In this document: in pieces, positions 6,688-42,797 of the stretch | Position numbering within the stretch: the first letter of the stretch is position 1 | How the letters are laid out: the number at the start of each line of letters is the position of its first letter | DNA from: Alphaproteobacteria bacterium | GTDB taxonomy: Bacteria > Pseudomonadota > Alphaproteobacteria > UBA7887 | NCBI GenBank assembly: GCA_965216755.1 | Contig: CBDCGL010000011.1 | Location: 1,600,001 to 1,664,000, forward strand | Direction of reading: 5' to 3' | Length of the DNA stretch: 64,000 nt | Notes under the pieces: model-generated | The model's database searches: none | The model's input: only the letters and a program-made list of their open reading frames with translations | Told to the model about the DNA's origin: nothing | Translations under genes and position numbers: made by a program

Positions 6688-6800
6688 CACTGCGGCTATG
6701 GCGCAATTTGCCGCGGTTCGTTCGCAATTTGAGTCGCTAACGCCACAATGATGGGCGACTGCGCACGGCGCGTATCGCGTAAAGTTTCAGGTGCACCCCA

Positions 6801-7085
6801 ATGGAAGACCAAAGGCACGCCACACTCGGTGTTATCAGTTTTGGCCTCGCTTTCGGCATGAGCGGTGTCATCGTCACCGTCGTGCTTGGCTTGTCGGCAT
6901 GGCTGGCGAGCTGGGGCGTCACCGTGGTGCAAGTCCTAGGTTCTCTGTTCCTGGGCTACGGTCCGAGTTTCGTCGGCATTGTTGCTGGCGCGGTGTGGGC
7001 GTTCTTTGATGGCTTTGTTCTCGGTGTCCTGATCGCCTGGTTCTATAACCGGTTTCTGCTGCGCCGACAGCGGCACGTGTCCTAG
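6801..7085 (+). CDS. Small membrane protein of the family often auto-annotated 'bacteriophage holin'
   Basis: 94 aa and hydrophobic, with a GY.PS..G...G..WAF.DG...G.LIAW.YN signature. Confidence 0.7.
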   Translation: MEDQRHATLGVISFGLAFGMSGVIVTVVLGLSAWLASWGVTVVQVLGSLFLGYGPSFVGIVAGAVWAFFDGFVLGVLIAWFYNRFLLRRQRHVS

Positions 7086-7097
7086 CGAGATCCGATC

Positions 7098-8966
7098 TCA
7101 ATTCACGGCCCGAACCACCGCAGCTTCACCCTGCGCCGGGCCCAAACATGCCTCGATCTCCGCACGGCTTAAGGTTTCCTTGGCCTCAAGTTCGGCAACG
7201 AGACGCTCCATCTCCGGGCGATGTTCGCGAATTTGGGTTGCCGCACGCTCACCCGCCTCGGCAAGCAATTTGCGCACGGCTTCGTCGACTTCATGAGCCG
7301 TGGTTTCACTAAATCGACGCGGTTGCGCGATTTCCCGTCCCAAGAACGGATGTTCCTCACTTTGGCGCAGATCGATGGGGCCAATCGTGTCAGACATGCC
7401 CCAACGCGCGACCATCGCGCGGGCCAATTGCGTCGCCTGGCGAATATCGTCGTCCGCCCCAGATGAGACGTTGCCGAGAAGCTCATCTTCCGCGGTGCGC
7501 CCGCCAAGCATCACGGCAAGTCGATCGCGCAAATAGTCCTCGGGCAACGTATGACGCTCCTCCTCCGGTAGCATATGCGTGCCGCCGAGCGCGCGCCCGC
7601 GCGGAATAATGGTCACTTTGTAGAGCGCGTCGGCCTTGGGCAGAAAATGCGCGGTGACGGTGTGCCCCGCTTCGTGCACCGCCAATCGATGCCGCTCCTC
7701 CGGCAAAATGGCGAGCGTGCGGACCGCGCCCATCATGACTTTGTCGCGCATGTCGTCAAAATGGCGCGCGGTCACCGCGTCGGCGCCATCGCGCGCGGAC
7801 GCCATCGCCGCTTCGTTGACGAGATTCTTGAGATCGGCGCCAGAAAACCCCGGTGTGCCCGCTGCGAGAAGGCCGAGATCGACGTCCTTGGCCAGTGGCA
7901 CCTCGCGCACATGGACTTTGAGAATTTCCTCGCGCGCCTTTTTGTCCGGCAGTTCCAACGTCGCATGCCGATCAAATCGGCCCGGTCGCAGCAGCGCGGG
8001 GTCGAGCACATCGGGTCGATTGGTGGCCGCCAGCACGATCACGGTCTCACGACCGGTAAATCCGTCGAGCTCGGACAATATCTGATTCAGAGTCTGCTCG
8101 CGCTCGTCGTGGCCACCGCCAAATCCCGCGCCGCGGACGCGGCCGACAGCATCCAATTCGTCGATGAAGATAATGGCCGGCGCCCGTTTCTTCGCCTCGT
8201 CGAACATTTTGCGCACCCGCGACGCACCTACGCCGACGAACATTTCGATGAACTCCGATGCCGAGATATGGAAAAATGGCACGCCGGCTTCACCAGCAAG
8301 AGCGCGAGCCAGCAACGTTTTTCCTGTGCCGGGTGGGCCGACCAGCAGCACACCACGGGGCGGTTCTGCCCCGAGCTTGCGATAACGTTCTGGCGTGCGC
8401 AAAAAATCGACGAGCTCGGAGACCTCCTTTTTTGCATTGTCCTGGCCGGCAACATCGGCAAACGTGACCTTTTTTTGGCCCTTTTCCTCTTTCTTCGCGG
8501 AACCGGACAGAAAGTCGCCAAGATCGCGGCCGCCAAGTCGCCCGACCATGTTCTTTTGCATCCGGCTCCAAAACCAGAAATAGAGACCCAAGAAAAAGAG
8601 CCATGGCAAAAGGGCGGAAAACCATCCAAGGCCCCCATCTGCACCTGGTAAGTTCTCGATCTCGACGCCGAATTCCTCCAGATGCGGCAGCAATGTCGGG
8701 TCACCCACCTCTGGCAGCCTGGTCCGGATCTGCCGGACCGCGGTTGCCGTGTCTCCAACCACCTGTGGTTGGGTCAGCTCTGCCGTCGCCTCATTGCCTC
8801 GCAGTGCGACCTTCGCGACTTTGCCTGTTGAGACCAACGACTTGAACTGGGAATAGGTGACAGCCGCGCCCGACTCAATCTCTGCCTGTTGAGCCCCGTA
8901 GAACAGGGTGAGCAACACGACAGCGCCGACTAGGGCGGCCAATAGCCAGGACGGCGTTCGATTCAT
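7098..8966 (-). CDS. ftsH: ATP-dependent zinc metalloprotease FtsH
   Basis: Two TM segments, Walker A GPPGTGKT, Walker B IFIDELD, SRH motif [24 protein letters not shown] zinc motif; AAGGA RBS before the ATG at 8966. Confidence 0.97.
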
Positions 8967-9052
8967 AGCGTCCTTCCAATCCACGGCAGGCGCTTTTCGG
9001 CAATCTTATCCATTTCAGCCCCCTTTTCTATCCCGCTGAGCGCCCCGATTGG

Positions 9053-9066
9053 TTGATCTGAATTAC
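9053..9066. promoter_or_regulatory. Imperfect FNR/FixK-like box between divergent ftsH and archease
   Basis: TTGATctgaATTAC versus TTGAT-N4-ATCAA (2 mismatches). Confidence 0.35.
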
Positions 9067-9103
9067 AGTTCTGGATCATGACACGTGCGACCATGCAGTC
9101 CCC

Positions 9104-9544
9104 ATGATCAAGCAATCATCCGGCAAGTTGCCGCGCTGGGAGCATTTTCCCCACGATGCGGACATCGGCGTGAGAGGCGTTGGCGCAACCAAGCCCGATG
9201 CGCTGGCCCAAGTCGCGTTGGCGATGACCGCTGCCGTCACGGATCCCAGCCATATCGAACCGCGGGATCGCGTAGACATTCAATTTCGGCACGGTGATGA
9301 CTCACTGCTTTTGTACGACTGGCTCAATGCACTCGTCTTCGAAATGGCGGTCCGTTCCATGTTGTTCAGCCGCTTTGACATCGTCCTTGAAGCGGATCGC
9401 CTAACGGCAACCGTTTGGGGCGAATCCGTAGATCCTGACCGGCATCAGCCGGCCGCCGAAATCAAAGGCGCAACCTTCACCGGATTGCGGCTTGAACCAG
9501 ATGCGGACGGCCACTGGATCGCCGAGTGCGTCGTGGACGTTTGA
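9104..9544 (+). CDS. Archease (RtcB activator)
   Basis: WEHFPHDADIG, L.DWLNALVF, EIKGATF and terminal VVDV; 12 bp upstream of rtcB. Confidence 0.93.
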   Translation: MIKQSSGKLPRWEHFPHDADIGVRGVGATKPDALAQVALAMTAAVTDPSHIEPRDRVDIQFRHGDDSLLLYDWLNALVFEMAVRSMLFSRFDIVLEADRLTATVWGESVDPDRHQPAAEIKGATFTGLRLEPDADGHWIAECVVDV

Positions 9545-9556
9545 TCGCGGGGCGCC

Positions 9557-10987
9557 ATGGATCGAAGCTCACTGACCCGCGTCGATGACACGGTATGGCG
9601 CATTGAACCATCCGGCGCAATGCGGGTTCCCGGCATTATTTATGCCAGCGAAGACCTCATCAGCGAAATGGACGAGAAAGTCCGCGAGCAGGTCGCCAAT
9701 GTTGCCACCCTCCCCGGCATTGTTACGGCATCCTATGCCATGCCCGACGCGCACTGGGGTTATGGCTTTCCAATCGGCGGGGTCGCGGCCTTTGATGCGG
9801 ACGCGGGCGGTGTTGTCTCCGCCGGTGGCGTGGGTTTCGATATTTCGTGTGGCGTCCGCACGCTGCTGACCGGCCTCCCCGAAACCGACGTGCGCGCGCG
9901 CGCCCAGGATCTTGCCAAAGCCCTATTTGAAACGATCCCGGCGGGCGTCGGCAGCAAGGGGCGAATCAGCCTTGAACCCGCCGCGATGGACGCCATGCTG
10001 GAAGGCGGTGCCCGTTGGGCGGTCGACCAAGGCTGGGGCCTAAGCGAAGATCTGGATCGCATCGAGGAACATGGGTGCGCGGCCGGGGCCCGGCCCGATT
10101 GCGTGTCAGAGCAGGCCAAGAAACGCCAGCGTCGAGAGATGGGCACTTTGGGTTCGGGCAATCATTACCTCGAAGTTCAAACCATCGCCGAGATTTTCGA
10201 TGCCGCCACTGCGGCGCGTTGGGATCTGCGCGCGAGCGACGTGATCGTGACCATTCACTGCGGATCACGCGGTCTTGGCCATCAGATCGGCACCGATTTT
10301 CTGCGTGAGATGGTGGTGGCGGCCGCCGAGCACGGCATCATTCTGCCGGATCGTGAACTCGCTTGTGTGCCGATCAAATCCGAAATCGGCGCCCGCTATC
10401 TTGGCGCCATGCGCGCTGGCATCAATTGTGCGCTCGCCAATCGGGAAATCATCGGTCACCTCACACGCCACGTTTTTGCCGAGCTGCTTCCTTCAGCGTC
10501 GATGACGCTGCTCTACGACGTTTCGCACAACACCTGTAAGGTCGAACAACACCACGTCGAGGGCAAGCAGCGGTCGCTTTTTGTTCACCGCAAAGGCGCC
10601 ACGCGCGCGCTCGGTCCCGGACATCCGAACTTGCCAACGGCCTTTGCCGAGACCGGACAACCGGTTCTGATCGGCGGCAGCATGGGCACCTGCTCTTATA
10701 TACTCGTCGGTACCGAGGCCGGACTCGCGCGCTCGTTTGGGTCCGCCTGCCACGGTGCCGGTCGGGCGATGAGCCGTCACCAAGCGCGCAAACGCTGGCG
10801 CGGCCGCGATGTCTCCGAAGCCCTCGAGGCGCGCGGCATCTTCGTGCGCAGCCCAAGCGCGCGTGGTGTCGCCGAAGAGGCGCCCGGCGCTTACAAGGAC
10901 GTCACCGTCGTCGTGGCGGCGACCGAACATACGGGGCTGGCGCGTCGCGTGGCACGACTTGACCCCATGATATGTATCAAGGGCTGA
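9557..10987 (+). CDS. rtcB: RtcB RNA ligase (archaeal/eukaryote-like type)
   Basis: MPDAHWGYGFPIGG, GFDISCG, GTLGSGNHYLE, HCGSRG, SHN, HRKGA, GGSMG, SACHGAGR, EEAPGAYK and terminal IKG. Confidence 0.97.
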   Translation: MDRSSLTRVDDTVWRIEPSGAMRVPGIIYASEDLISEMDEKVREQVANVATLPGIVTASYAMPDAHWGYGFPIGGVAAFDADAGGVVSAGGVGFDISCGVRTLLTGLPETDVRARAQDLAKALFETIPAGVGSKGRISLEPAAMDAMLEGGARWAVDQGWGLSEDLDRIEEHGCAAGARPDCVSEQAKKRQRREMGTLGSGNHYLEVQTIAEIFDAATAARWDLRASDVIVTIHCGSRGLGHQIGTDFLREMVVAAAEHGIILPDRELACVPIKSEIGARYLGAMRAGINCALANREIIGHLTRHVFAELLPSASMTLLYDVSHNTCKVEQHHVEGKQRSLFVHRKGATRALGPGHPNLPTAFAETGQPVLIGGSMGTCSYILVGTEAGLARSFGSACHGAGRAMSRHQARKRWRGRDVSEALEARGIFVRSPSARGVAEEAPGAYKDVTVVVAATEHTGLARRVARLDPMICIKG

Positions 10988-11020
10988 TGACGCCGCCGTC
11001 GGACCGGGGAAGACCCTATG

Positions 11021-11893
11021 TCAACGCGGTGTCACCTCGTCCCGCGCGAATGTCGGGTCCGATTGGTCGCGTGGGATGGCGGACATCGACGAAATCTCGC
11101 GGCGAAGTGCAGCAACTTCGGTGACTAACGCCCGAAGCGCCAGATCATGGGCAATCGCTTGATCTTGCTCCTCCTCCGCCGCGGCTTCGTGCATGGAGTT
11201 GACGATGATCGCAATAAACAAATTCAACACCGCGAATGTCACGATCAGAATAAAAGGCACAAAGAAGGCCCAAGCGTAAGGATGTAGCGCCATCACCGGG
11301 CGCACGATCCCCATTGACCAGGACTCCAGCGTCATAATCTGAAACAGCGTGTACGCCGACCGCCCGATCGTTCCGAACCAGGCGTCAAAGTCTGCACCGA
11401 ACAACTTTGTGGCCATAACCGCGGCGACATAGAAGACCAAACACAATAGGGCCAAGACGGACCCCATGCTCGGGATTGCCTGTAGCAGCGCCTGAATAAC
11501 GACGCGCATGCGGGGAACCACCGAAATGAGGCGCAGCGCCCGCAAAATACGCAATGCGCGGAGTACCGAAATGCCGTCGCCGGTTGGCGCCAATGAAACG
11601 GCCACGATCGCAAAATCAAACAGGTTCCACGGATCTCGGAAAAAGCGAAAGCGATAGACAACAAGCTTGATGGCAATCTCGACAACAAAAATGGTCAAAG
11701 CCATGGCGTCGAGCACGCGTAACAGACTGCCGGCCGCAGCCATGGCGGTCGACGATGTTTCGAGGCCGATAACGATGGCGTTGACCACAATAACGGCGAT
11801 GATCGCTTTGCGTGTCAGCCCGGCCTCGATGAAACTTTGCAGTCGGCTCATCGCGCCCAGCGGCGCAGCCTCCACATTTGCGTCGTCAGTCAT
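11021..11893 (-). CDS. Bacterial voltage-gated sodium channel (BacNav)
   Basis: 6-TM pattern, WNLFDF, S4 RALRILRALR, selectivity filter TLESWSMG, C-terminal coiled coil. Confidence 0.93.
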   Translation of the reverse strand: MTDDANVEAAPLGAMSRLQSFIEAGLTRKAIIAVIVVNAIVIGLETSSTAMAAAGSLLRVLDAMALTIFVVEIAIKLVVYRFRFFRDPWNLFDFAIVAVSLAPTGDGISVLRALRILRALRLISVVPRMRVVIQALLQAIPSMGSVLALLCLVFYVAAVMATKLFGADFDAWFGTIGRSAYTLFQIMTLESWSMGIVRPVMALHPYAWAFFVPFILIVTFAVLNLFIAIIVNSMHEAAAEEEQDQAIAHDLALRALVTEVAALRREISSMSAIPRDQSDPTFARDEVTPR

Positions 11894-12540
11894 CGCCAAA
11901 TCGGCCTGAATTGGTCGCTTTTTCGATCCAACCCGTGCAGCCGGCCGTCCGCGATATCGAAATAGGCCCCGCGCAAACGCAAAAGCCCGGCCGCGAGCCG
12001 CTCATTCACGAAGGGAAACGTCCGCAAATTCTCCAAAGATTGGCGGATAGAAGCATGTTCAAGCACCTGCTGCTGCACCTCGAGCGAAGCTTCAGCAGTC
12101 GCGCCGAGTGCCTCAATGTGCGCGGGGTTCAACAGGGACATCCAGCGTTCAATGAACATGGATCCTTGAGAGCGATCTTGAAGCCCATCCAAGAAAGCGC
12201 GAACGCCACCACAACGGGCATGGCCCAAGACCAATATGTTCTCAACGTCCAGACCGTTGACTGCAAATTCCAAAGCGGCACTGGTGCCGTGATAGTCGCC
12301 GTGTCGCTCGAACGGCGGGACCAAATTGGCGACATTGCGCACGATGAACAGCTGACCGGGGCCCGCGTTGAATATGGCCGCGGGGTCGACGCGACTATCG
12401 CAGCAGGCAATCACCATCGTTTTCGGCGCTTGGCCCGCATCCGCTAGTGCTCGATAGACGGCAGCTTCTTGGGGATATCGTTTTTCAAGAAAGTCCTTAT
12501 ACCCGTTTACCAATTCAGCGATATCGTGCACGGTCAACAC
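11890..12540 (-). CDS. Beta-class carbonic anhydrase
   Basis: GQAP, CCDSRV, RNVANLVPP, AALEFAV and HARCGG zinc motifs; ATGA overlap with the channel gene. Confidence 0.93.
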   Translation of the reverse strand: MLTVHDIAELVNGYKDFLEKRYPQEAAVYRALADAGQAPKTMVIACCDSRVDPAAIFNAGPGQLFIVRNVANLVPPFERHGDYHGTSAALEFAVNGLDVENILVLGHARCGGVRAFLDGLQDRSQGSMFIERWMSLLNPAHIEALGATAEASLEVQQQVLEHASIRQSLENLRTFPFVNERLAAGLLRLRGAYFDIADGRLHGLDRKSDQFRPIWR

Positions 12541-12657
12541 CTCGGTTCAGTGGTTGGCCTGGGGCGAGGTCCTAAGACGGCCTGGGGTGAGTTATTGACC
12601 ATCACCCTGATAGCAGCGTCCCCATTCAAAAGCACCCCTCCCGGGAACGGCGACGCC

Positions 12658-13524
12658 TTAATTCATGGTCTTGGGCGGCGGTGCCTGGGCATAGTATCGT
12701 CGGCACTCGCCTTCGCGACCGCGAACCACGCGTTCACCGACAAGAACGCCCCGGGTCTCTGTCACAATCGTGCGCTGACCTTCTGCATGATCATCCGAGT
12801 GGAAATAGACGACGACCCAATCGTGCGTGCGCCCCAGATCGTGGGCGCGCGCTGTATTGGAGAACAACACAGTGAAATGCCAGCGGCCGCGGTTGGTGTG
12901 AAGGATCGGCAGCCACGCTTCGGCGCTTGGGTTGAAACGCCGGGGCGCGATCGTACGCAGCTGGCCGGCCGCCGCTTTCTCGCGATATTCGCGATCCACA
13001 TCGAGCAAGGCGTCGATCGGCGGTTCCGTCGCCGTCGCCGGCCGCGGCCTTGGGCGTGCACGTTTCAGCATTTCCGCCAAGGATGCACGAACCATGGCTG
13101 CGCGCCTGGAGCCGACCCCGGGTACAGCGTCAAGCCGGCCGTCATGGGCAGCTATTTCTAGGGCTTCGAGTGTGTCGATGTGCAAAGTGTCGTGAATACG
13201 TTCGGCAAACTTCGGGCCAATCCCGGGAACCGTCTGAAACAATCGCTCCGGCCGCGATTCGCCCCGTAGCCGCTCCAGTAGACTCGATCGGCCGGTCCGG
13301 AGAATTTCCTCAATCGTGTTCGCGATCGATGGCCCGATACCTGGCAACGCAACCAGGCCTTCATGACCTGCCCGCTGAACCAATTCGCCGACATCGTCAT
13401 CAAGTTCGACTACGGTCTTAGCGGCACGGCGATAGGCGTTTTGACGGAATGGGTTCGCGCCTTGACCGGCAAGCAAAGCGGCGATTTGGTCGAGTATGTC
13501 GGCGATATGGCTATTTGGCGACAC
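12658..13524 (-). CDS. PolX-N-terminal/helix-hairpin-helix protein with an uncharacterised C-terminal domain
   Basis: NPFRQNAYRRAA (PolX 8-kDa domain) and three HhH motifs (LPGIG, VPGIG, VPGVG). No palm GS.RR/DxD motif and no PHP domain. Confidence 0.85.
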   Translation of the reverse strand: MSPNSHIADILDQIAALLAGQGANPFRQNAYRRAAKTVVELDDDVGELVQRAGHEGLVALPGIGPSIANTIEEILRTGRSSLLERLRGESRPERLFQTVPGIGPKFAERIHDTLHIDTLEALEIAAHDGRLDAVPGVGSRRAAMVRASLAEMLKRARPRPRPATATEPPIDALLDVDREYREKAAAGQLRTIAPRRFNPSAEAWLPILHTNRGRWHFTVLFSNTARAHDLGRTHDWVVVYFHSDDHAEGQRTIVTETRGVLVGERVVRGREGECRRYYAQAPPPKTMN

Positions 13525-16324
13525 GCTCTACCGGCTCCCCACGACGCACATGCCCATCAGTGTGGTTGGTTACCAACTTCAAGATTTCCATTACGACTAG
13601 CAAGGTTGCGGCAATTGCCGCCACTGTCAGCCAGTCGCGCCAACCAATGGGCGCTACGTCCAAGACTCCGCTGAAACCGGGCGTGTACATCGCTACAATA
13701 TGTAGGCCCTGCGCCGCAAATATGGCGAGTATCAGAAACGGGTTCGCCGATAGTGGCACACGAAACACCGAACGCCGCTCCGAACGCGCGTTCAGAGCCT
13801 GCACATTCTCAAACAACACCATGAGCAGCAGCAACAGGTTTCGCGCCGCCGCCTCGCTCATCCCGCTGTCCAATGCCCAACTGTAAAATGCAAAGGCCGC
13901 GACGCCCATGTACGTCCCGCCGACAATGACCTGCAGGATCATCCGGTGCTCGAACAACGGTTCTGTCGGCGGTCGTGGCATTCGCCCAAGAACATCCGGC
14001 TCGCCCTTTTCGAACGAAAGGGCGACGTCTTGAATGCCGTTGGTCACCAGGTTTAGCCACAATAATTGTATGGCAAACAATGGTAACGGCAAACCGGTGG
14101 CGATCGAAAGCAAGAACAACACGATCTCGCCGAGGCCCGTCGTGATAAGGAGAAAAACAAGTTTGCGAACATTGTCGTAGGCAATGCGCCCTTCTTCCAC
14201 GCCGGAAACAATGCTCGCGAAATTGTCGTCGGCCAAAATCAAATCGGCAGCGCCGCGCGCGGCATCGGTGCCGCTTTCGCCCATGGCCACGCCGATATCG
14301 GCGGCTGACAGTGCCGGGGCATCATTAACGCCGTCACCGCTGACCGCGACCAGTTCCCCCCGACGTTGCAACGCCTGTACAATTGACAGCTTTTGAACCG
14401 GGTCGATGCGCGCAAATACGCGGGCGCCACCGACCAAAGAGTCGAACACGGTTTGGTCATCTGCGGCATCGCCGAGCTCACTGCCACTAACGACCTGTGT
14501 TCGGTCGCCGGTGATGCGCAGTTCACGCGCGATCGCCAGGGCCGTGCTGGGGTGATCGCCAGTGACCATCCGCACGTCAACGCCTGCCGACCGACATCGA
14601 TCTATGGCCGCAGGGACCTCTGGCCGGACGGGGTCTATTAGGCCGACGAGTCCGAGCACCGTCAGCCCCCTTAGCGCCTCTATCTCCGGCGATAGAGCGC
14701 GTTCAATAGACATGGTCCCGCGCGCGACGGCCAAGACTCGATATCCCGCGGCAGCCATGTCCTCGGCGGCGGCCTGGATTGGCGCGCGGGCTGGGCCATC
14801 GCACATATCCAGAATAACCTCCGGTGCGCCCTTGACATGGGCGACTGCCACAGCCTTTTCATGCTCTTTGGGTGCAGCGCCAGCCGTGAATACAGCACCA
14901 AATCGACGGCGTGGTTCATAAGGAAGCAAGCCCAGACGCGGATGTGCTTCTTGCAATACGCGATAGTCGAGTCCGAGCTTGGCGGCAAAAACAAGCAGCG
15001 CGACGTCGACGGTATCGCCCAAATGCTCAACCTCGTGCGCCCGCACTCGCAGGCTGGCTTCGTTACACAGTGCAGCACTTGTCGCAAAACCTCTCAACAG
15101 ATCGTCGATATCCGCTGAGAGTGCGCGGCCGTTCAGTGTTGCACCACCCTGAGGCAGATATCCTTGACCACCCACCTCGACCAGGTCCGGTGGTGCAGCA
15201 TCACCGAACAATCGGACCCGTTTTACCGTCAGCTCGTTGCACGTCAAGGTGCCGGTCTTGTCGCTGGCAATCAGCGTGCACGCGCCAAGGCCTTCAACCG
15301 CCGGCAGGGCGCGGACAATCACATTGCGGCGCGCCATGCGCGTCGCGGCAATCGACAAGGCGACGGTGATCGCCACTGGCAATCCCTCCGGAATGGCCGC
15401 AACGGCCAACGCCACGGCCACCAAGAAAACTTGGACCAGCGGTAAACCTTGAAGGAGTTGAACGGCAGCAATTAAGGCAATGAACAACAACGTCGCAACG
15501 CCGATCACCCGGCTGAACCGCTCCAGGCGTGTGACCAAGGGCGGCGGCGCCACGTCGCCACGTGCCAGCGCTGCAGCAATCTGGCCAACCTCCGTCCCCG
15601 ATCCGATGACGGCAACGACGCCACTGACGCGCCCGGACAAGACGGTCGTCCCTGCGTGCAGCATGTTGCGCCGTTCGGCGATGGGAATCGAGTCACGCGC
15701 CATCGCCGCGGCGTCTTTCGCCACGGGGGTCGATTCGCCCGTGAGAAGTGATTCGTCGACAGTGAGTTCCGTAACTGAAAGTACTCTAATATCCGCCGGC
15801 ACCAAGGCACCTGAGCCCAGGGAAACAATGTCTCCAGGCACCAAGTCCGATGCATCCACCCGCCGGGCAACGCCATCTCGGCGGGCAACCGCGATATTGC
15901 GCACCAGCACATCCAAGGCGGCCGCCTGGCCTTCCGCTTGCCTCTCCTGATAGGTTCCGATCGCCGCATTCAGCTGTATGACAATGAAAATAAAAAAGGC
16001 GTCGGCCCACTCGGCCATGCCAACCGACACCACCGTGGCGAGCAACAAGAGATAAACAAGTGGATTCTTGAATTGCCTGGCATAGATGACTGCAAGACTT
16101 GCGCGCTTTCGTCGCGGCAAGATGTTGGCGCCGAAAACACGTCGCCGCGCCTGCGCCTCGGGGGAGGTCAAACCATCCTCCGTGGTCCGCAATTGCGCCA
16201 ACGCCTGATCCCGGCGTAAGGCGTGCCACGCACCATGCGCGTGCGCGCCAGGAATCAATGTCGGCTTGTCGCTTGGCTCAGTTGTTGAACGTCCTTCTAT
16301 CGCCGACATGTCCATTCCGCTCAC
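13511..16324 (-). CDS. Cation-transporting P-type ATPase (P2-like)
   Basis: LTGES, AIPEGL, DKTGTLT, KGAPE, DPVR, TGD and GDGVNDAPAL motifs; C-terminal TM bundle. Confidence 0.95.
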   Translation of the reverse strand: MSGMDMSAIEGRSTTEPSDKPTLIPGAHAHGAWHALRRDQALAQLRTTEDGLTSPEAQARRRVFGANILPRRKRASLAVIYARQFKNPLVYLLLLATVVSVGMAEWADAFFIFIVIQLNAAIGTYQERQAEGQAAALDVLVRNIAVARRDGVARRVDASDLVPGDIVSLGSGALVPADIRVLSVTELTVDESLLTGESTPVAKDAAAMARDSIPIAERRNMLHAGTTVLSGRVSGVVAVIGSGTEVGQIAAALARGDVAPPPLVTRLERFSRVIGVATLLFIALIAAVQLLQGLPLVQVFLVAVALAVAAIPEGLPVAITVALSIAATRMARRNVIVRALPAVEGLGACTLIASDKTGTLTCNELTVKRVRLFGDAAPPDLVEVGGQGYLPQGGATLNGRALSADIDDLLRGFATSAALCNEASLRVRAHEVEHLGDTVDVALLVFAAKLGLDYRVLQEAHPRLGLLPYEPRRRFGAVFTAGAAPKEHEKAVAVAHVKGAPEVILDMCDGPARAPIQAAAEDMAAAGYRVLAVARGTMSIERALSPEIEALRGLTVLGLVGLIDPVRPEVPAAIDRCRSAGVDVRMVTGDHPSTALAIARELRITGDRTQVVSGSELGDAADDQTVFDSLVGGARVFARIDPVQKLSIVQALQRRGELVAVSGDGVNDAPALSAADIGVAMGESGTDAARGAADLILADDNFASIVSGVEEGRIAYDNVRKLVFLLITTGLGEIVLFLLSIATGLPLPLFAIQLLWLNLVTNGIQDVALSFEKGEPDVLGRMPRPPTEPLFEHRMILQVIVGGTYMGVAAFAFYSWALDSGMSEAAARNLLLLLMVLFENVQALNARSERRSVFRVPLSANPFLILAIFAAQGLHIVAMYTPGFSGVLDVAPIGWRDWLTVAAIAATLLVVMEILKLVTNHTDGHVRRGEPVERVAK

Positions 16325-16388
16325 GGCTCAAAGCTTGGTCCGACAGTGGAAATCAATCGCAATCATGGTGATTTTTTGTTGCGGCTAT

Positions 16389-16402
16389 TTGCCAGCTCTC
16401 AA
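16389..16402. promoter_or_regulatory. FixK-type box upstream of the P-type ATPase
   Basis: TTGCcagctcTCAA fits the relaxed TTG(A/C)-N6-(T/G)CAA pattern, about 65 bp upstream of the ORF. Confidence 0.35.
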
Positions 16403-16519
16403 TCTCCTTGAACTGATGCATGAGGTCGATCGACACCTGCGCCACGCTCACGAAATCCGTTAAAGCGCGACGAAAAGAACCGGGATGGCAACGTCTCTGT
16501 AACTGATTCTGGACTCCAG

Positions 16520-16810
16520 CTAACCTTGTGCCACTTCAGCGGACCAATCGACCGACCGCGCCCCTTCGCCCAACGCGCGCGGTTGGTGGGCGAACTCAAC
16601 GAACCGTTTGAGGTCTTCAAGGGTCGCGCGTGCGCTGGACGCGGTCGAAGTTTGCGTCGGCCCCAGCGCTGAAAGGACGGACTCCAACGCCGCATCGACC
16701 TGATGATAGCTGACCGCGTCGGCGCGGATCAGCATTTCCAGTAGCACCTTGTTTACGACCGTCAGTGCGGCCAACCGCGCCTCGACCGTATCCTTACCTT
16801 GCGCGTTCAT
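16520..16810 (-). CDS. Hypothetical protein (96 aa)
   Basis: ATG start with a GAGGG RBS; helical composition; fills the gap downstream of the aminotransferase. Confidence 0.6.
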   Translation of the reverse strand: MNAQGKDTVEARLAALTVVNKVLLEMLIRADAVSYHQVDAALESVLSALGPTQTSTASSARATLEDLKRFVEFAHQPRALGEGARSVDWSAEVAQG

Positions 16811-16867
16811 GCTGCCCTCTTTGGACCTTCTTAACTAAGCCAAACGAAAAAATGGCACACGCTCGTG

Positions 16868-18049
16868 TCACGTGCCGAAATACCTGTCCATACGGTCGAA
16901 CGCCGAATTTATCACGTCATCGGCCACGCAAAACGCCATGCGCACACGGCTTTCACCACGCGGACCAAACGCACTACCGGGTGTCACGATTACCTTTGCG
17001 TGTTCAAGAAGATCTATAGCAAATGTGCTGGAATCTTTGTGCGGCACCAGAATTTTTGGAAAGACATAATACGCGCCCTCGGGTTTGACGTAGGAAAAAA
17101 CATGGTTGAGTCGATCGAGGCGTTCACAAATCAATGCGCGGCGGCGCGCCAGCACGGCCTCAAAGGCGGTCAAGTGTACCGGCGGTTCGCTCAATCCAAC
17201 AATCGCAGCAACTTGCGAAATCCTTGGTGTACAAATGATTGTTGCATCGTGAACTTTAAGAACTTCCTTCTTAATGGCCGCCGGTACGATCATATAGCCG
17301 ACTCGCCAACCGCTCATCGCATAGGATTTCGAGAACGTGAACAAGTAAGCGATGTGATCGAAAAGCTCGGTCACCGACGACAAATTGAAGATACGGTCAT
17401 GATTTTCATAGGCAAAATGCGAATAGGGATCGTCGATCAGAATCATCAAGTCACGTTGCCGCGCAACCTGGCCAACATGCCGCAGATCTTGCTCAGAAAA
17501 AATCACGCCCGTGGGATTCGACGGTGTCACCAGAACGATTGCCTTGGATTTTTCGGTGACAAGGCTGTCCAATGCGGCGACATCGAGGCGCCAGCCCCGT
17601 GCCTCATCCATCGGCCAGAAGACCGGCCGGCCGCCGCACAGGCGAATCTGCTGAAAGTGTGACGCGAAACCCGGATCGGTGACGATGATTTCATCACCGG
17701 GGTTGATCAGAACATGAAATAGCGCATTGAGGCCCTGCATGTTGCCAGCGGTGATCATCACATTTCGATCGGCATCCGTAGCAACGCCCGTCGCGTCCTG
17801 ATGCACTTGGGCAACGATATCTCTGAGCTCAGACAAACCGTCGGGCAATGCATATTTGCCGATGTCCGGATCCGCTTCGAGCGCCTTTTCAATGCCACAT
17901 CGAATATGTTCCGGTGTTTCGAACGAGGGCAGCCCCCACGTTAAGGAGGCAGCACCGTCGACTTTCGCACCGCGGATAGCCATCTCCTTGATTGCCGAAA
18001 CAGTGATTCCGGCGACATGCTGAGACACGCGATCCACAGTGGCGGTCAT
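16868..18049 (-). CDS. PLP-dependent aminotransferase class I/II
   Basis: PSNPTG, DDPY, FSKSYAMSGWRVG, PEGAYY and PGSAFG motifs; start taken at the MTATVD ATG. Confidence 0.93.
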   Translation of the reverse strand: MTATVDRVSQHVAGITVSAIKEMAIRGAKVDGAASLTWGLPSFETPEHIRCGIEKALEADPDIGKYALPDGLSELRDIVAQVHQDATGVATDADRNVMITAGNMQGLNALFHVLINPGDEIIVTDPGFASHFQQIRLCGGRPVFWPMDEARGWRLDVAALDSLVTEKSKAIVLVTPSNPTGVIFSEQDLRHVGQVARQRDLMILIDDPYSHFAYENHDRIFNLSSVTELFDHIAYLFTFSKSYAMSGWRVGYMIVPAAIKKEVLKVHDATIICTPRISQVAAIVGLSEPPVHLTAFEAVLARRRALICERLDRLNHVFSYVKPEGAYYVFPKILVPHKDSSTFAIDLLEHAKVIVTPGSAFGPRGESRVRMAFCVADDVINSAFDRMDRYFGT

Positions 18050-18107
18050 TGGTAGATCATTCGCATCGAGGTGTTTTTCCCGTCTTTTCGACGCGCTAAT
18101 CCGCACG

Positions 18108-19229
18108 CTAAAGGTTTGGTGAAGACCATCGTCGCGTGGCCATCGCTTTTCGGACACGTACCGAGGCCATCGCGTCGGCCACGGCGCGGGGAGTCACCGC
18201 GTCGCTTTGCGCGCGGCTCAAGACTTGCGATGTATTGAGGCTAATCTTTTCCTCGATGAATTGCAGTGCGGCCGCTTCCGTCCCACCGGCATATTCGACG
18301 GCCGCACAGATCACGCCGCCGGCATTGGCAATGAAATCGGGGATAACCAGCACATTCTTGTTGTGCAACCAGAGTTCCGCTTCGGCGGTCGCCGGTATAT
18401 TCGCGCCTTCCAGAACAAGCTTGGTGGAAAGCTGCTCGACATTGTCGCCGCGCAGCGCATTGGGTCGCGCCGCCGGAATCCAAATGTCACATTCGATGCC
18501 GATGACGGCGTCGCGATCGACTACGACACCGGTATTATGGTCAGCCAGGTGACCACTATCGCGTTTCGTGGCAATCAATGCTTCGATATCCAGACCGTCG
18601 CTATTGTAGACGGCGCCGCGCGAATCCGATGCGGCGACCAAAACAGCGCCCTTCGCGGCTAAGAATCGGGCGGCGTGCTGCCCGACCGCGCCAAAGCCTT
18701 GCACGACAACACGCGCGTTGCGCAAATCCAAATCGCAGAACGGCGCGGCAATGGTCGCCGCCACCGCCAGGCCAAAGCCCGTGGCGCCAATCTCATCGAG
18801 CGGGATTCCACCGAGTTCCCGTGGTAAACCAACAGCTCGACCGATCTCATCCTTCATCCATGCCATGCAGATTTCGTTGGTGCCCATGTCGGGGCCAGCG
18901 ATGTATCCGCTCTCATCGCCGATCGCACACGCGAAGGCGCGAACGATACGTTCTTTTTCGCGTGCCGGCATACGTGGATCACCAAAGATGACCGACTTGC
19001 CACCGCCATGGGACAGGCCGGCAGCCGCGTTCTTGAGTGTCATCGACCGTGCCAAGCCGAAACATTCTTCAACGCTCACGTCGGGCGCCATTCGAACGCC
19101 ACCGATTGCCGGCCCCGCCGCGATATTGTCGACAACGACAACCGCCTTAAGGCCTATCGATGGCTGATAGATTTGGAGAATTCGCTCAGGCCCCAGATCA
19201 TCGCAGAAATCAAATCCCGATCGGCTCAT
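18108..19229 (-). CDS. Glu/Leu/Phe/Val dehydrogenase
   Basis: GGVR, MTLK, GGGK, GPDMGT, ATGFG, QGFGAVG, EGAN and PDFIANAGGV motifs. Confidence 0.93.
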   Translation of the reverse strand: MSRSGFDFCDDLGPERILQIYQPSIGLKAVVVVDNIAAGPAIGGVRMAPDVSVEECFGLARSMTLKNAAAGLSHGGGKSVIFGDPRMPAREKERIVRAFACAIGDESGYIAGPDMGTNEICMAWMKDEIGRAVGLPRELGGIPLDEIGATGFGLAVAATIAAPFCDLDLRNARVVVQGFGAVGQHAARFLAAKGAVLVAASDSRGAVYNSDGLDIEALIATKRDSGHLADHNTGVVVDRDAVIGIECDIWIPAARPNALRGDNVEQLSTKLVLEGANIPATAEAELWLHNKNVLVIPDFIANAGGVICAAVEYAGGTEAAALQFIEEKISLNTSQVLSRAQSDAVTPRAVADAMASVRVRKAMATRRWSSPNL

Positions 19230-19247
19230 GTACCGCTCTCCTAAACC

Positions 19248-20228
19248 TCAGCCGTATGCCATCACCTTCTCGATTTCGGCCGTGACGCGCGCGATCGAGG
19301 GCATATTGATTCCTTCCAATCTGGGCAGCGGCATGACCGTGTCAAAAGCGGTGACGCGCATGACCGGCGCAACCAAGGACATAATGGCGTCTCGTGCCAG
19401 CCGCGCCGCGATCTCAGCACCGAATCCGCCGGTCAGCGGCGCCTCGTGGACAATGACGCAGCGTCCAGTTGTCTCGACGGATGCCAGAATCCCGGACATA
19501 TCGAGTGGCGACAGCGTCGCGACATCAATGACGGCGCATTCGACACCCTGCCCGGCCATATCGTTGGCGGCGTGCAAGGTCTCTTCGACCATCGCCCCCC
19601 ACGTTACCAATGTCACGTCCGCCCCATCGCGCAACATGACTGGCTGGTCCAGCGAATGTGCCACGCCATCGTCATCAAAGTCCTCTCGCAAAGCGCGATA
19701 AAGCCTTTTGGGCTCTAAGAACACCACCGGATCCGGGTCGTGAATCGCCGCGAGTAGCAAACCGTACGCACGTCGTGGCGACGACGGTATGACGACACGC
19801 AACCCTGGCACATGGGCAAACATTGCCTCGGTGCTTTCTGAATGATGCTCAGGGGCATGGATGCCGCCGCCAAAAGGCGCACGCAGAACCATCGGGCATG
19901 ACAGCCGACCGCGCGTACGATTTCGCAATCGTGACGCATGATTGACCATTTGATCCATGGTCGCGTAAACGAAGCCCATAAACTGAATTTCGACCACTGG
20001 CCGAAATCCTTGCGCAGCCAACCCGATGGCTAGGCCCGCAATGACTGTCTCCGACAGCGGCGTATCGCGAACCCGGTCGGCGCCATACGCGTCCTGCAAT
20101 CCTTCGGTGACACGAAACACGCCACCGTTTCGCCCGATGTCTTCGCCAACCAGGATCACCGACTCATCCTCGCGCAGAGCCCGGGCAAGCGCCAAATTCA
20201 GCGCTTCAACCATGGTCAATTCAGGCAC
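19248..20228 (-). CDS. 2-oxoacid dehydrogenase E1 beta subunit
   Basis: GEDIG.NGGVFR, DTPLSE, EIQF, EHHSES and FLEPK motifs. Confidence 0.95.
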   Translation of the reverse strand: MPELTMVEALNLALARALREDESVILVGEDIGRNGGVFRVTEGLQDAYGADRVRDTPLSETVIAGLAIGLAAQGFRPVVEIQFMGFVYATMDQMVNHASRLRNRTRGRLSCPMVLRAPFGGGIHAPEHHSESTEAMFAHVPGLRVVIPSSPRRAYGLLLAAIHDPDPVVFLEPKRLYRALREDFDDDGVAHSLDQPVMLRDGADVTLVTWGAMVEETLHAANDMAGQGVECAVIDVATLSPLDMSGILASVETTGRCVIVHEAPLTGGFGAEIAARLARDAIMSLVAPVMRVTAFDTVMPLPRLEGINMPSIARVTAEIEKVMAYG

Positions 20229-21318
20229 GCGCGTCGTCCTTCGCGATCAAGTCCGCACGCTGAGCGGCAAGTGGTTCCGGTAGTTGCGCAAATAACGAAT
20301 CGAATGCTGCTTGTGGCCGCTCGCGGTCGAAAGCAAGATAGGTCGCCGCGGCTTGATCGATCAGCTCATGACATGAGGTCAGCAAGCGTTCTTCATCGGC
20401 AGCCGTCCAATCATGCATAGCGGTCAGAAATGCGCGAGATCGAGCGATCGGCTCCGCGTGCCAATGGTGACGGACCTCGTTCTCGTCACGATAGCGGCGC
20501 GCATCGTCGACCGTCGTGTGATCGCTGAGCCGATAGGTCTCAGCCTCGATCAAGGTTGGCTCGCGCGCTGTCCGCGCGCGCTCCAACGCGTCCCTCACCC
20601 CTTCGTAAACCGCAACAACATCGTTACCGTCGACACGCATACCGGCAATTCCGGCAGCCATCGCCTTGTGTGCCAATGTCACCGCACGGGATTGCCGCGA
20701 ACGTGGCTGCGAAATCGCCCAGCCGTTATTGTTGACAAGAAAGACGACAGGCAGCGCCCAGACGCCGGCTAGATTGATGGCTTCGTAGAAATCGCCTTTC
20801 GATGTGGCGCCGTCGCCGAGAATACAAACAGCCGCACGCTGTTGACCCCGCAACTTCATCGCCAACGCGACGCCAACGGCGTGCGGCGCATGACTGGCGA
20901 TAGGAATGCTGACCGGAAAATCCTCCCGCGGCCCAGCAAAATTACTGCCTCGCTCATCGCCGCCCCAATATTGGAAGAGCTCGGCCGGCGTCACGCCGCG
21001 TACCAGCTGCGCGCCATGTTCGCGGAACGATGGCAGCAAGACGTCGGCGTCGTCCATGGCGCGCGCCGCGCCGACGCCCACGGCTTCCTGCCCCAATGTC
21101 GACGCAAAAGTACCAAGGCGTCCGGTACGCTGCAGTGCGATTGCCCGCTGATCGAAAACGCGTGTCTGCACCATGGCTCGATAGAGGGCAATAAGGGCAT
21201 TTCGGTCACGCGCGATCGCGGGAAGGTCAGCGACCACGCGTCCTTCGGCATCCACAAAACGCAGCAAGGGGTAGTCATCCGCGACGGCAGCACGGCCAAT
21301 GTAAGAACTGTCACCCAA
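20221..21318 (-). CDS. 2-oxoacid (pyruvate/branched-chain) dehydrogenase E1 alpha subunit
   Basis: LQRTGR, GQEA, TPP motif GDGATS..NNN, and YRLSDHTT.DD. Confidence 0.95.
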   Translation of the reverse strand: MGDSSYIGRAAVADDYPLLRFVDAEGRVVADLPAIARDRNALIALYRAMVQTRVFDQRAIALQRTGRLGTFASTLGQEAVGVGAARAMDDADVLLPSFREHGAQLVRGVTPAELFQYWGGDERGSNFAGPREDFPVSIPIASHAPHAVGVALAMKLRGQQRAAVCILGDGATSKGDFYEAINLAGVWALPVVFLVNNNGWAISQPRSRQSRAVTLAHKAMAAGIAGMRVDGNDVVAVYEGVRDALERARTAREPTLIEAETYRLSDHTTVDDARRYRDENEVRHHWHAEPIARSRAFLTAMHDWTAADEERLLTSCHELIDQAAATYLAFDRERPQAAFDSLFAQLPEPLAAQRADLIAKDDARA

Positions 21319-23005
21319 GCCCCAGTTCCTCCGCCATCATATCGCGCATGACGAATTTCTTGACCTTTCCCGTCACGGTCATCGGGAATGCTTCGACAAA
21401 CTTGATGTACCGCGGGATCTTGAAATGCGCGATCTTGCCTCGGCAGAATGCGCGAATTTCCTCTTCTGTCGCGGATTGCCCTTCGCGCAGTTTGATCCAT
21501 GCGCATACTTCCTCGCCGAACTTGGGATCCGGCACACCAATGACCTCGACTTCATCGATCTTCGGGTGCTGATACAAAAACTCCTCGATTTCACGTGGGA
21601 ATATGTTCTCACCGCCTCTGATCAGCATGTCTTTGATGCGCCCAACAATGCGACAATAGCCTTCGTCGTCCAGCGTCGCGGTATCGCCACTGGCAATCCA
21701 ACCTGCATCATCGATCGCTTTGCTCGTCCGCGCCGGATCGTTCCAGTATTTTGGCATCACGCAATAGCCGCGGGTCTTGAGTTCTCCGGCAACGTCACGC
21801 GGCACCATCCGGTTGTTTTCATCGACAATCTTGATTTCGATATGGGGCAGTACGCGCCCTACGGTTTCGGTGCGCCGCGCAATCGTGTCGCTGACCGAAG
21901 TTTGAAAGCTGACCGGGCCCGTTTCCGTCATGCCGTAGGCAATCGTGATCTGCTGGAGATGAAGGTCGGCCATCACCCGATGCATCAATTCAACCGGACA
22001 GGGCGCCCCGGCCATGATCCCGGTCCGCAGGGTGGCGACGTTACCGGGCGCCTGTTCCCTTGCATCCAATACGCCAATGAACATGGTCGGCACGCCATGC
22101 AACGCAGTGCATTTTTCGGTAGCGATCGCAGCCAGCACAGCGTGCGCATCAAAACTCTCGGATGGAAACACCATCGCCGCGCCGTGGGCAACACAACACA
22201 ATGCGCCCAATGCCATGCCGAAACAGTGATACATCGGAACCGGAATACACAACCGGTCTGCCTCTGAGAAAGCCATCTGTTTGCCAACGAAGTATGCATT
22301 GTTGACGATATTGTGGTGTGTCAATGTGGCAGCCTTCGGCGCACCCGTCGTCCCACTGGTAAATTGAATGTTGATGGGATCGTCAAATTGCAGCCGCGCC
22401 GAAACTTCTCTCAGCTGTGCGCGATGACTTGCCGTCGCACGACAGGCAACCGAGTCGAAAGTGATCATACCGCGCGGTTCAATGTCGCCCAAACAGATGA
22501 CCCATCGCAATGATGGGACCCGCGCCGCCTTGACATTGCCGGGCGCGGCCGTCGCCAGCTCTGGAATCAACTCGTTGAGCATGGCGACATAGTCACTTGA
22601 CTTCAGCGCGGGCGTCGTGATCAGGGCGCGACAGCCGACGGTATTCAGCGCGTATTCCAATTCCGGCAGCCGATAGGCGGGATTTATGTTGACCAGGATA
22701 AGACCCGCCTTTGCTGTAGCAAATTGTGTGACGACCCACTCCGCCAGGTTTGGCGCCCAGATACCCACTCGATCGCCCGATTCGAGACCAAGTGCAAGCA
22801 GTCCGGCAGCAACTTCATCGACCCTGTCGCGCAGGTCCGCATAACTCCAATGGATATTTTGATGACAGACGATTAGGGCATCCCGGTCACCGTATTGCTC
22901 GACCGTACGATCGAACAATGCCCCAACTGTCTCGCCCAAGAGTGGGATGTGGCTGGTGCCATGTACGTAACTTCGGGCCGCTTGTGGCATCACGTTGGCG
23001 ATCAC
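21311..23005 (-). CDS. Acyl-CoA synthetase (AMP-binding, ACSF2-like)
   Basis: FTSGTTGAPK, YGMTE, SGD, GRIKDMLIRGGEN and TVTGK motifs. Confidence 0.95.
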   Translation of the reverse strand: MIANVMPQAARSYVHGTSHIPLLGETVGALFDRTVEQYGDRDALIVCHQNIHWSYADLRDRVDEVAAGLLALGLESGDRVGIWAPNLAEWVVTQFATAKAGLILVNINPAYRLPELEYALNTVGCRALITTPALKSSDYVAMLNELIPELATAAPGNVKAARVPSLRWVICLGDIEPRGMITFDSVACRATASHRAQLREVSARLQFDDPINIQFTSGTTGAPKAATLTHHNIVNNAYFVGKQMAFSEADRLCIPVPMYHCFGMALGALCCVAHGAAMVFPSESFDAHAVLAAIATEKCTALHGVPTMFIGVLDAREQAPGNVATLRTGIMAGAPCPVELMHRVMADLHLQQITIAYGMTETGPVSFQTSVSDTIARRTETVGRVLPHIEIKIVDENNRMVPRDVAGELKTRGYCVMPKYWNDPARTSKAIDDAGWIASGDTATLDDEGYCRIVGRIKDMLIRGGENIFPREIEEFLYQHPKIDEVEVIGVPDPKFGEEVCAWIKLREGQSATEEEIRAFCRGKIAHFKIPRYIKFVEAFPMTVTGKVKKFVMRDMMAEELGLG

Positions 23006-23057: not shown

Positions 23058-23071
23058 TTGATATGAATCAA
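23058..23071. promoter_or_regulatory. Perfect FNR/FixK box
   Basis: TTGATatgaATCAA is an exact TTGAT-N4-ATCAA match, about 50 bp upstream of the acyl-CoA synthetase ORF. Confidence 0.8.
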
Positions 23072-42666: not shown

Positions 42667-42797
42667 CAATTAGCCTTTTCAACAGGCGTGCAAGTCGACG
42701 CGAAGTCACCCGGACTATTTCGAAAGCATTTCATGACAGCCGCCCTTGGTCGGGCTACAGTCTTGTTCTGGCATGATGGTAATGGCCATTGCGTCGC

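Follow-up and report, generated by a model that had tools for sequence, protein, structure and literature searches.

FNR-linked stress genes beside archease-rtcB in an alphaproteobacterial genome: a probable lineage-specific patchwork rather than a dedicated eight-gene system

The enterobacterial rtcBA genes form a stress-switched RNA-repair ligase operon under the control of RtcR and sigma-54. The lxa locus of Burkholderia cenocepacia consists of 50 genes with TGA-N6-TCA motifs at 17 intergenic points, and its deletion mutants show reduced anoxic survival (Sass et al., 2013; PMC3721108). Table 4 of that paper includes an ATP-dependent Zn protease (BCAM0309, 130-fold induced) and a cation ATPase (BCAM0318), as well as a PEBP-family protein, many Usp proteins, PhaC, an ABC/HlyD-type transporter set and a metal-dependent RNase. 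The DosR regulon of Mycobacterium tuberculosis, as given in PMC5309233, has among its members RtcB (Rv2631), Rv1997 (placed under proteases/transport) and the phosphoribosyltransferase Rv0571c, and for the hibernation factor Balon, RtcB is reported as a common companion in stress operons, alongside RaiA and Hsp20 (Helena-Bueno et al., 2024; PMC10901736). The idea that RtcB, a protease like FtsH and a P-type ATPase belong to a pool of genes serving low oxygen or dormancy is thus already in print. The subject here is an island of eight genes within 6801–16402 of a 64,000-nt stretch of an alphaproteobacterial genome (contig CBDCGL010000011.1; the whole stretch is hereafter the window), in which a second ftsH, archease and rtcB lie close to genes for a helix-hairpin-helix (HhH) protein, a P-type ATPase, a carbonic anhydrase and a sodium channel. 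An earlier note on this DNA had stated that no system with this gene set was known, a claim that is too strong given the Zn protease and cation ATPase of lxa and the RtcB of the DosR regulon.

The island is best read, though with some reserve, as a lineage-specific patchwork drawn from an FNR-linked pool of stress genes of a kind already known, and not as a dedicated eight-gene system. This reading is preferred because the HhH gene, RtcB/RtcA/archease, FtsH and a dehydrogenase operon recur together in box-rich neighbourhoods of other genomes. The pool can be classed, by analogy, with lxa and with the DosR regulon of mycobacteria. As far as the lxa paper describes it, lxa is a loose stress-gene island behind Anr/FNR-like TGA-N6-TCA motifs, and the likeness is claimed to the pool: its Zn protease and cation ATPase have counterparts in the FtsH paralogue and P2A-type ATPase of the window, and HhH neighbourhoods elsewhere share with it PEBP, Usp, PhaC, ABC/HlyD/MacB components, a metallo-beta-lactamase of the RNase type and the BCAM0308 family. 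The main text of that paper (PMC3721108) does not contain the terms RtcB, FtsH or carbonic anhydrase. The DosR regulon, which belongs to another phylum and is scattered over nine blocks, is controlled by the two-component regulator DosR and not through an FNR-family box. Its further members, which we take to include pncB2 and CapA-like, HPF-like, CBS and Usp proteins, correspond to families repeatedly found next to HhH. As for operons of the Balon type, HPF-CSD recurs beside HhH elsewhere, and the window itself yielded neither a Balon nor an HPF gene.

Gene identities were taken from a listing of open reading frames (ORFs) and from Pfam and NCBIfam scans, and together these recovered all eight tightly packed genes that had been described earlier. 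Archease, the activator of RtcB, is encoded on the plus strand at 9104–9544 (Pfam Archease, E 2.1e-35) and is followed after 12 bp by an RtcB RNA ligase of the archaeal/eukaryal, archease-dependent type (9557–10987, plus strand; Pfam RtcB, 552 bits), which matches Pyrococcus horikoshii RtcB (PH1602) at E 1.1e-148 and human RTCB at E 1.9e-125. A full-length RtcB of this type with an adjoining archease constitutes an RtcB-archease system, for which ligase activity is predicted. Divergent from this pair, on the minus strand at 7098–8984, lies a second, stress-type paralogue of the AAA+ zinc protease FtsH, identified by Pfam and by TIGR01241 (713.4 bits against a cut-off of 600), which has the N-terminal membrane/FtsH_ext part and in which the Walker A and B motifs, the second region of homology and HEAGH (the M41 HEXXH site) are all intact. 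It is 51% identical to the host's other FtsH (49% by blastp).

The HhH family is very large, with at least 8000 candidates (best non-self match 69% identity) and at least 519 relatives in species genomes, of which the best 80 loci, some of them only 2–6 kb long, were kept for neighbourhood analysis. Of 300 other genomes of the class, 21 encode RtcB, and 20 of the RtcB neighbourhoods were retrieved. The window's proteins were searched in these comparison loci by tblastn, within 10 kb in the case of HhH, and the predicted neighbours up to 5 kb from the 80 HhH genes in either direction were clustered and cluster representatives scanned for families. Within 10 kb of HhH, RtcB was found in eight of the 80 loci, archease in seven, FtsH in six, and the dehydrogenase and the ATPase in two each, both ATPases being only 30–31% identical to the window's. 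At the closer distance of 5 kb, RtcB, RtcA or archease accompanied HhH in 10 loci. Among the 20 RtcB loci, archease was found in 18, an adjoining P-type ATPase in three, the dehydrogenase in two and a PolX-like match in two; none of the 20 had FtsH, the channel or the carbonic anhydrase. Gene-neighbourhood comparison, which the earlier note had proposed as a check, separates the set: FtsH, archease-RtcB, HhH and, more weakly, a P-type ATPase recur together, and the channel, the carbonic anhydrase and the eight-gene set as a whole do not.

Several of these recurrences are operon-like. A contiguous ftsH-HhH-rtcA arrangement is present in two gammaproteobacterial metagenome-assembled genomes (L078:3871-7673 and L087:8087-11926), with gaps of 0 bp on one side and a 4-bp overlap or 15-bp gap on the other, and it is with the FtsH proteins of these two loci, its closest kin at 65–66% identity, that the window's FtsH groups (100/100 support). 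Elsewhere the order is rtcA-HhH (L017) or archease-rtcB-HhH (L057), and in two further loci (L050 and L054) HhH converges on rtcB-archease. Co-occurrence extends to whole genomes: in the sample of 300 genomes from the class, RtcB is present in 5 of 11 HhH-positive and 16 of 289 HhH-negative genomes (Fisher p = 3.6e-4, or 0.013 when one genome of each same-genus pair is dropped), the two genes lying on different contigs in those five.

Beyond these partners, the families found within 5 kb of HhH have a distinct stress flavour, with at least one pool family in 54 of the 80 loci and at least three in 20. RtcB, FtsH, a Mut7-C RNase and a metallo-beta-lactamase were each found in six loci, Cpn60 and phosphoribosyl pyrophosphate synthetase in seven each, and CBS, a LonB/C-like protease and the NCBIfam lxa_BCAM0308 family (E 1.3e-55) in five each. 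RtcA, BON, PRTase, NAPRTase, acetyl-CoA synthetase, DbpA helicase, PLD, PEBP, HPF-CSD and MacB/HlyD/ABC followed with four each, and Usp, DksA/TraR, PhaC, PGA_cap, PNPOx and E1 alpha/E1 beta/E2 with three each. The commonest neighbour of all (nine loci) belongs to a family of 359-aa proteins (for example L054:8735-9814), whose gene mostly diverges from HhH with an FNR-type box in between. Searches of Pfam, NCBIfam and the chains of the PDB gave this family no match, and it may represent either a genuine uncharacterised gene or an artefact of ORF calling. For two other neighbour families, of 317 and 93 aa, no family was found either.

Set against such recurrences, the proposal that the island is a pure chance neighbourhood of unrelated accessory genes, with neither regulation nor function in common, is unlikely. 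It can draw on the uniqueness of the eight-gene order, which was seen in no other genome searched (80 HhH loci, 20 RtcB loci and 40 relatives), on the lack of any motif shared across the island, on a base composition identical to that of the flanks and on flanking genes of ordinary kinds, the rest of the window (scanned to 49671) being given over to ordinary metabolism and transport. However, the joint recurrence of the FtsH paralogue, archease, RtcB, HhH and the dehydrogenase/E1 operon, including ftsH-HhH-rtcA, is far above chance, and HhH and RtcB co-occur across genomes.

A link to FNR-type regulation, a further support of the pool reading, is provided by the promoters of other genomes. With TTGAT-N4-ATCAA as the box consensus and TTGA-N6-TCAA as its 8-bp core, the 80 HhH loci (1.27 Mb) contain 15 perfect boxes against 0.26 expected from composition and 68 boxes with one mismatch against 8.9, and the 20 RtcB loci contain two perfect boxes against 0.05 and 17 one-mismatch boxes against 1.6. 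An exact core site lies between -200 and +20 of 61 of 628 HhH-neighbour genes (9.7%), as opposed to 29 of 4434 genes of the host's main contig (0.65%). Of 25 orthologous archease loci, 10 have such a site before the gene, and since several of these boxes are identical among same-genus or otherwise close loci, the count corresponds to about seven independent lineages; an exact core site also precedes RtcB in one locus (L016), HhH in 11 of 81 cases and distant ATPases in two of five, both from one genus. Here the window differs from the rtcBA paradigm, in that its RtcB is of the archaeal/eukaryal type with archease and not the short type of E. coli, the host genome has no RtcA, and orthologous archease promoters carry FNR-type boxes. 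No paper on FNR-family control of rtcB was found in a search of the full-text literature, as far as that search gave access to it. A sigma-54 promoter before the window's archease was sought by eye, with no tool test, and the GG/GC spacing does not fit. In a separate genome (G028), a perfect FNR box was noticed about 31 bp before archease; the RtcB gene there (L131, C1:4127865-4129251) is split between two overlapping frames covering residues 13–274 and 273–476 and is probably frameshifted.

The host genome itself appears, from its sequence, to use a working FNR-type regulon. It has 24 perfect boxes where about one to two would be expected (arithmetic from base composition), and 14 of the 24 are intergenic though some 90% of the contig was called coding. 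A perfect box heads nnrU, and a box with one mismatch lies between nirS-like and NosR-like genes. Among the 10 matches to the cNMP domain in the genome, one that encodes a CRP/FNR-family regulator (C11:1593734-1594477) is situated some 12.6 kb upstream of the island and is itself preceded, at 262 bp, by a box with one mismatch; the product lacks an N-terminal cysteine cluster like that of FNR, and its scores stayed below every equivalog cut-off.

Scanning the upstream regions of orthologues for the box, another check proposed in the earlier note, was positive for archease-rtcB and HhH in other genomes but not for the window's own promoters. FNR/FixK-like boxes had been reported at 9053 and 16389, and neither stands. 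The first (TTGATCTGAATTAC, 9053–9066, in the divergent region between ftsH and archease) is a degenerate half-site with two mismatches and its right TCAA half destroyed, and no core site with one mismatch or fewer occurs in 8985–9103; the second (TTGCCAGCTCTCAA, 16389–16402, upstream of the ATPase gene) is a weak core-like site three mismatches from the full consensus and one from the core. Both are assigned to chance in view of the number of similar sites: the window has 31 sites with two mismatches or fewer, compared with 22.8 +/- 4.5 in shuffles, and 32 one-mismatch core sites in its 64 kb. The island's promoters have no convincing box, so that low-oxygen control of the window copy is no more than possible. 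The ftsH/archease divergent region also contains an imperfect inverted repeat, TGATCTGAA-N6-TTCTGGATCA (9053–9077), noticed by eye only, which overlaps the degenerate site and may be an operator for another regulator.

The only convincing box is the one that had been reported to head the neighbouring operon. This perfect FNR/FixK/Dnr-type box (TTGATATGAATCAA, 23058–23071) is confirmed 53 bp upstream of the operon start at 23005 and is probably functional, and the minus-strand operon behind it (16868–23005; acyl-CoA ligase, E1 alpha, E1 beta, a Glu/Leu/Phe/Val-type dehydrogenase and an aminotransferase, by Pfam and NCBIfam) is probably controlled by a factor of the FNR/Dnr/FixK type. In three other loci (L028, L030 and L039), an E1 alpha-E1 beta-E2 operon is found no more than 5 kb from an HhH gene or match. 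The HhH gene is inside or beside it in L028 and L030, where the adjoining dehydrogenase is 63–64% identical to the window's; in L039, where the operon is this close to an HhH match, the map shows no called HhH gene. This type of operon, with E2 elsewhere, may be a low-oxygen route for amino acids and 2-oxoacids. In G028, an ATPase orthologue 52% identical to the window's adjoins a dehydrogenase (GDH) of 62% identity.

The remaining members of the island belong to its minus-strand run. The P-type ATPase (13511–16324) is a probable P2A-type cation ATPase resembling SERCA, SPCA and LMCA1 by Pfam and by PDB matches (E about 1e-133 to 1e-137; SERCA1a, E 3.3e-137); the motifs TGES, PEGL, DKTGT, TGD and GDGVND are all intact, and it scores 577.2 bits against TIGR01116, below the equivalog cut-off of 703.4. 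The HhH gene (12658–13524) starts at a GTG at 13524, preceded by GGGGAG, and the 14-nt overlap between the two genes (13511–13524) that had been noted earlier is real, the ATPase stop codon (TAG, 13513–13511) lying inside the HhH gene, so that the ATPase is translationally coupled to the HhH protein. A gap of 117 nt separates HhH from a beta-class carbonic anhydrase (11890–12540; Pro_CA, E 3.3e-44), whose translation shows CCDSR and HARCGG, presumably supplying the Cys/His/Cys zinc ligands. The run ends with a NavAb-like BacNav voltage-gated sodium channel (11021–11899; Ion_trans, E 1.2e-43; E 1.6e-79 to NavAb over residues 10–272; selectivity filter TLESWSM), identified as BacNav on these grounds. 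The second reported overlap, at 11890–11893, is likewise confirmed: the carbonic anhydrase stop and the probable channel start, an ATG at 11893, together form ATGA (11893–11890), and the channel is translationally coupled to the carbonic anhydrase.

This packing invites the reading that ATPase, HhH, carbonic anhydrase and channel form one operon for lineage-specific ion and bicarbonate homeostasis, with the HhH protein as passenger or regulator. In its favour, the four genes share a strand, and are joined by overlaps of 14 and 4 nt and a gap of 117 nt, and the terminator-like hairpin in that gap is weak; a scan of the region for sigma-70 promoters and terminators did no better than shuffles, with 24 terminator-like sites where 19.3 were expected. 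Yet the combination recurs nowhere among the loci searched, the ATPase orthologue of G028 stands beside the dehydrogenase and not beside a channel or carbonic anhydrase, and the conserved partners of HhH are genes for RNA repair, proteolysis and dehydrogenases. A four-gene operon of this kind is improbable.

No better placed is the larger proposal of the earlier note, in which all eight genes make up one FNR/FixK-co-regulated module coupling RNA repair and proteolysis to the control of membrane potential and pH. Tight packing and the two overlaps, the perfect box 6.7 kb away at 23058, the CRP/FNR-family regulator upstream and the boxes before archease-rtcB in other genomes all speak for it. 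Against it, the channel and the carbonic anhydrase, like the island's small ORFs, were found in none of the 80 HhH loci, the former two are missing from the RtcB loci as well, six loci with channel orthologues have neither carbonic anhydrase, HhH nor ATPase, the intergenic regions hold no exact box, and the arrangement is absent from 40 relatives, where RtcB (5/40), ATPase (10/40) and channel (13/40) do occur, none near one another. What stands of the co-regulated module is a subset of genes recurring in neighbourhoods dense in FNR boxes; its extension to eight genes does not stand, nor does its control from the island's own promoters, and we give the eight-gene module very little credence. 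The eight-gene set is unique to the host genome among those searched, and the BacNav/carbonic-anhydrase pair is counted as incidental, part of nothing recurrent, because it was met at none of the 80 HhH, 20 RtcB and six channel-orthologue loci.

The pool reading has its own difficulties, and the following points all weigh against it. Gene calls in the foreign loci were crude (based on GC content at third codon positions, GC3) and the loci are related by kinship, with the result that the counts overstate independence. The links are loose, as in 70 of the 80 HhH loci neither RtcB, RtcA nor archease lies within 5 kb, and genome size may confound the co-occurrence of HhH with RtcB. The ATPases adjoining RtcB are only 30–38% identical to the window's, two of the three coming from one genus, and none of six promoters of FtsH orthologues carries an exact core site. 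Unlike lxa, the island has no exact TTGA-N6-TCAA in any of the five intergenic regions of 6688–16867, where the sole one-mismatch site is that at 16389. Furthermore, no Usp, Hsp20 or PEBP gene was found among the window genes scanned (243–49671) or in the 18 kb upstream, and the three Usp matches of the host genome are at least 0.7 Mb away.

Under the pool reading, the island would comprise several transcription units drawn from a widespread accessory pool of stress genes of the low-oxygen or dormancy type, and the window copy may be induced at low oxygen. To judge from their families, archease and RtcB would reseal RNAs cut to 2',3'-cyclic-phosphate and 5'-OH ends during stress, and the second FtsH would clear damaged membrane or regulatory proteins. 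The P2A pump would be made in coupling with an HhH protein that may bind nicks, gaps or ends in nucleic acids, next door to the acyl-CoA ligase/E1/amino-acid dehydrogenase operon behind its perfect FNR-type box. The BacNav/carbonic-anhydrase pair, coupled to itself, would stand outside the pool.

The least familiar component is the HhH protein itself. Its 288 residues correspond to the N-terminal part of DNA polymerase X (PolX) without the polymerase: residues 7–156 align with residues 2–151 of Thermus thermophilus PolX (PDB 3AU2; E 5.7e-28), that is, residues ~7–156 form the 8-kDa and fingers part, and residues ~165–288 form a conserved C-terminal domain that takes the place of palm, thumb and PHP. 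Pfam finds HHH_8 and HHH_5 alone and no palm, thumb or PHP domain, and the NCBIfam PolX model matches only residues 7–158 (63 bits against a cut-off of 426). In a profile alignment the family consensus has Ala at the position of Pol beta Lys72, which we take to be the lyase nucleophile of the 8-kDa domain, where the window protein has Thr and T. thermophilus PolX has Lys; Pol beta Lys35 aligns with the invariant Arg27 of the HhH family. Lacking palm, thumb and PHP and the lysine of the lyase position, the protein does not qualify as a DNA polymerase X. Full-length PolX is itself found within about 3 kb of archease-rtcB in two of the 20 RtcB loci (L115:11980-13704 and L118:5326-7044), both from genomes of the alphaproteobacterial class, and these are the two PolX-like matches counted above; both have HHH_8, HHH_5, thumb and PHP, and L115 has the palm as well.

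The 124-residue C-terminal domain (encoded at 12661–13032) is rich in invariant polar residues, among them Asp177, His209, Ser222-Asn223-Thr224, His228 and Glu256, and also Arg. AlphaFold2 models of the protein are confident (predicted local distance difference test, pLDDT, 88 and 89) and give the domain an alpha/beta fold (pLDDT 89; predicted template modelling score 0.82). It has no Pfam match at E<=10 and no NCBIfam family; Foldseek against the PDB gave nothing at E<=0.001, the highest Z in a wide VIA-align search was 4.5, where PUR-alpha, DUF155 and pseudopilin-like rows tied, and Atlas returned merely unnamed clusters of a "DNA-binding protein family". A profile of the domain found 1193 proteins with E<=0.001 among 1.84 billion representatives, and in the best 150 of these the domain is almost always C-terminal, following HHH_8 and HHH_5, in proteins of ~280–310 aa or fragments. 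Eleven longer forms offered no informative fusion, one carrying a PRTase piece and one an S6PP_C piece. A predicted complex of RtcB with the HhH protein scored 0.00, which carries no weight either way.

The PolX-like front end and the recurrent partners of the protein suggest a role in binding nicks, gaps or ends. A bolder proposal would have it work specifically with RtcB and RtcA, the enzymes that repair 3'-phosphate ends, and with the stress-type FtsH, recognising or processing 3'-P/5'-OH breaks in DNA or structured RNA for sealing at low oxygen; we regard this as rather unlikely.

At the edges of the island, the first of the eight genes (6801–7085, plus strand) encodes a hydrophobic membrane protein of 94 aa, a peripheral and non-recurrent partner with no Pfam match and no tblastn match among the 100 comparison loci. 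Its sole match is to the NCBIfam bacteriophage holin_4 family (67.2 bits, below the cut-off of 70), and no other phage gene was noticed close by. Upstream of the ATPase gene, a 96-aa ORF (16520–16810, minus strand) has a coding-like GC3 of 0.72, a single weak match to DUF6781 (E 0.0019) and no match in the comparison loci of HhH and RtcB; no family was assigned to the window's ORFs of 96, 98, 94 and 113 aa. A terminator-like hairpin lies at 16876–16854. Further away in the window, a gene for an extracytoplasmic function (ECF) sigma factor is followed by one for a ChrR-type cupin anti-sigma protein (42789–44014), a pairing typical of singlet-oxygen responses. Directly upstream of the window (L111, C11:1582001-1600000) there is another gene set with a stress flavour, comprising trehalose-6-phosphate synthase, an OsmC-fusion hydrolase, AhpC/TSA, the AmmeMemoRadiSam trio of radical SAM, Memo and AMMECR1 proteins, and the CRP/FNR-family regulator described above.

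As one more, differently composed example of a hypoxia/dormancy accessory pool, the island leaves the existing picture of such pools unchanged. Its by-products are of wider interest. FNR-family boxes before archease-rtcB in about 40% of orthologous loci, spread over several classes, point to a control of RtcB other than that by RtcR and sigma-54. In addition, a very large and unstudied HhH family is repeatedly wired to RtcB, RtcA, one clade of FtsH and an amino-acid/2-oxoacid dehydrogenase operon, and the partnership of HhH with RtcB/RtcA and FtsH, if true, would be an undescribed route of break repair. Together these observations provide hypotheses for a family that has had no function assigned, and they bear on the upkeep of nucleic acids in anoxic bacteria that are not growing.

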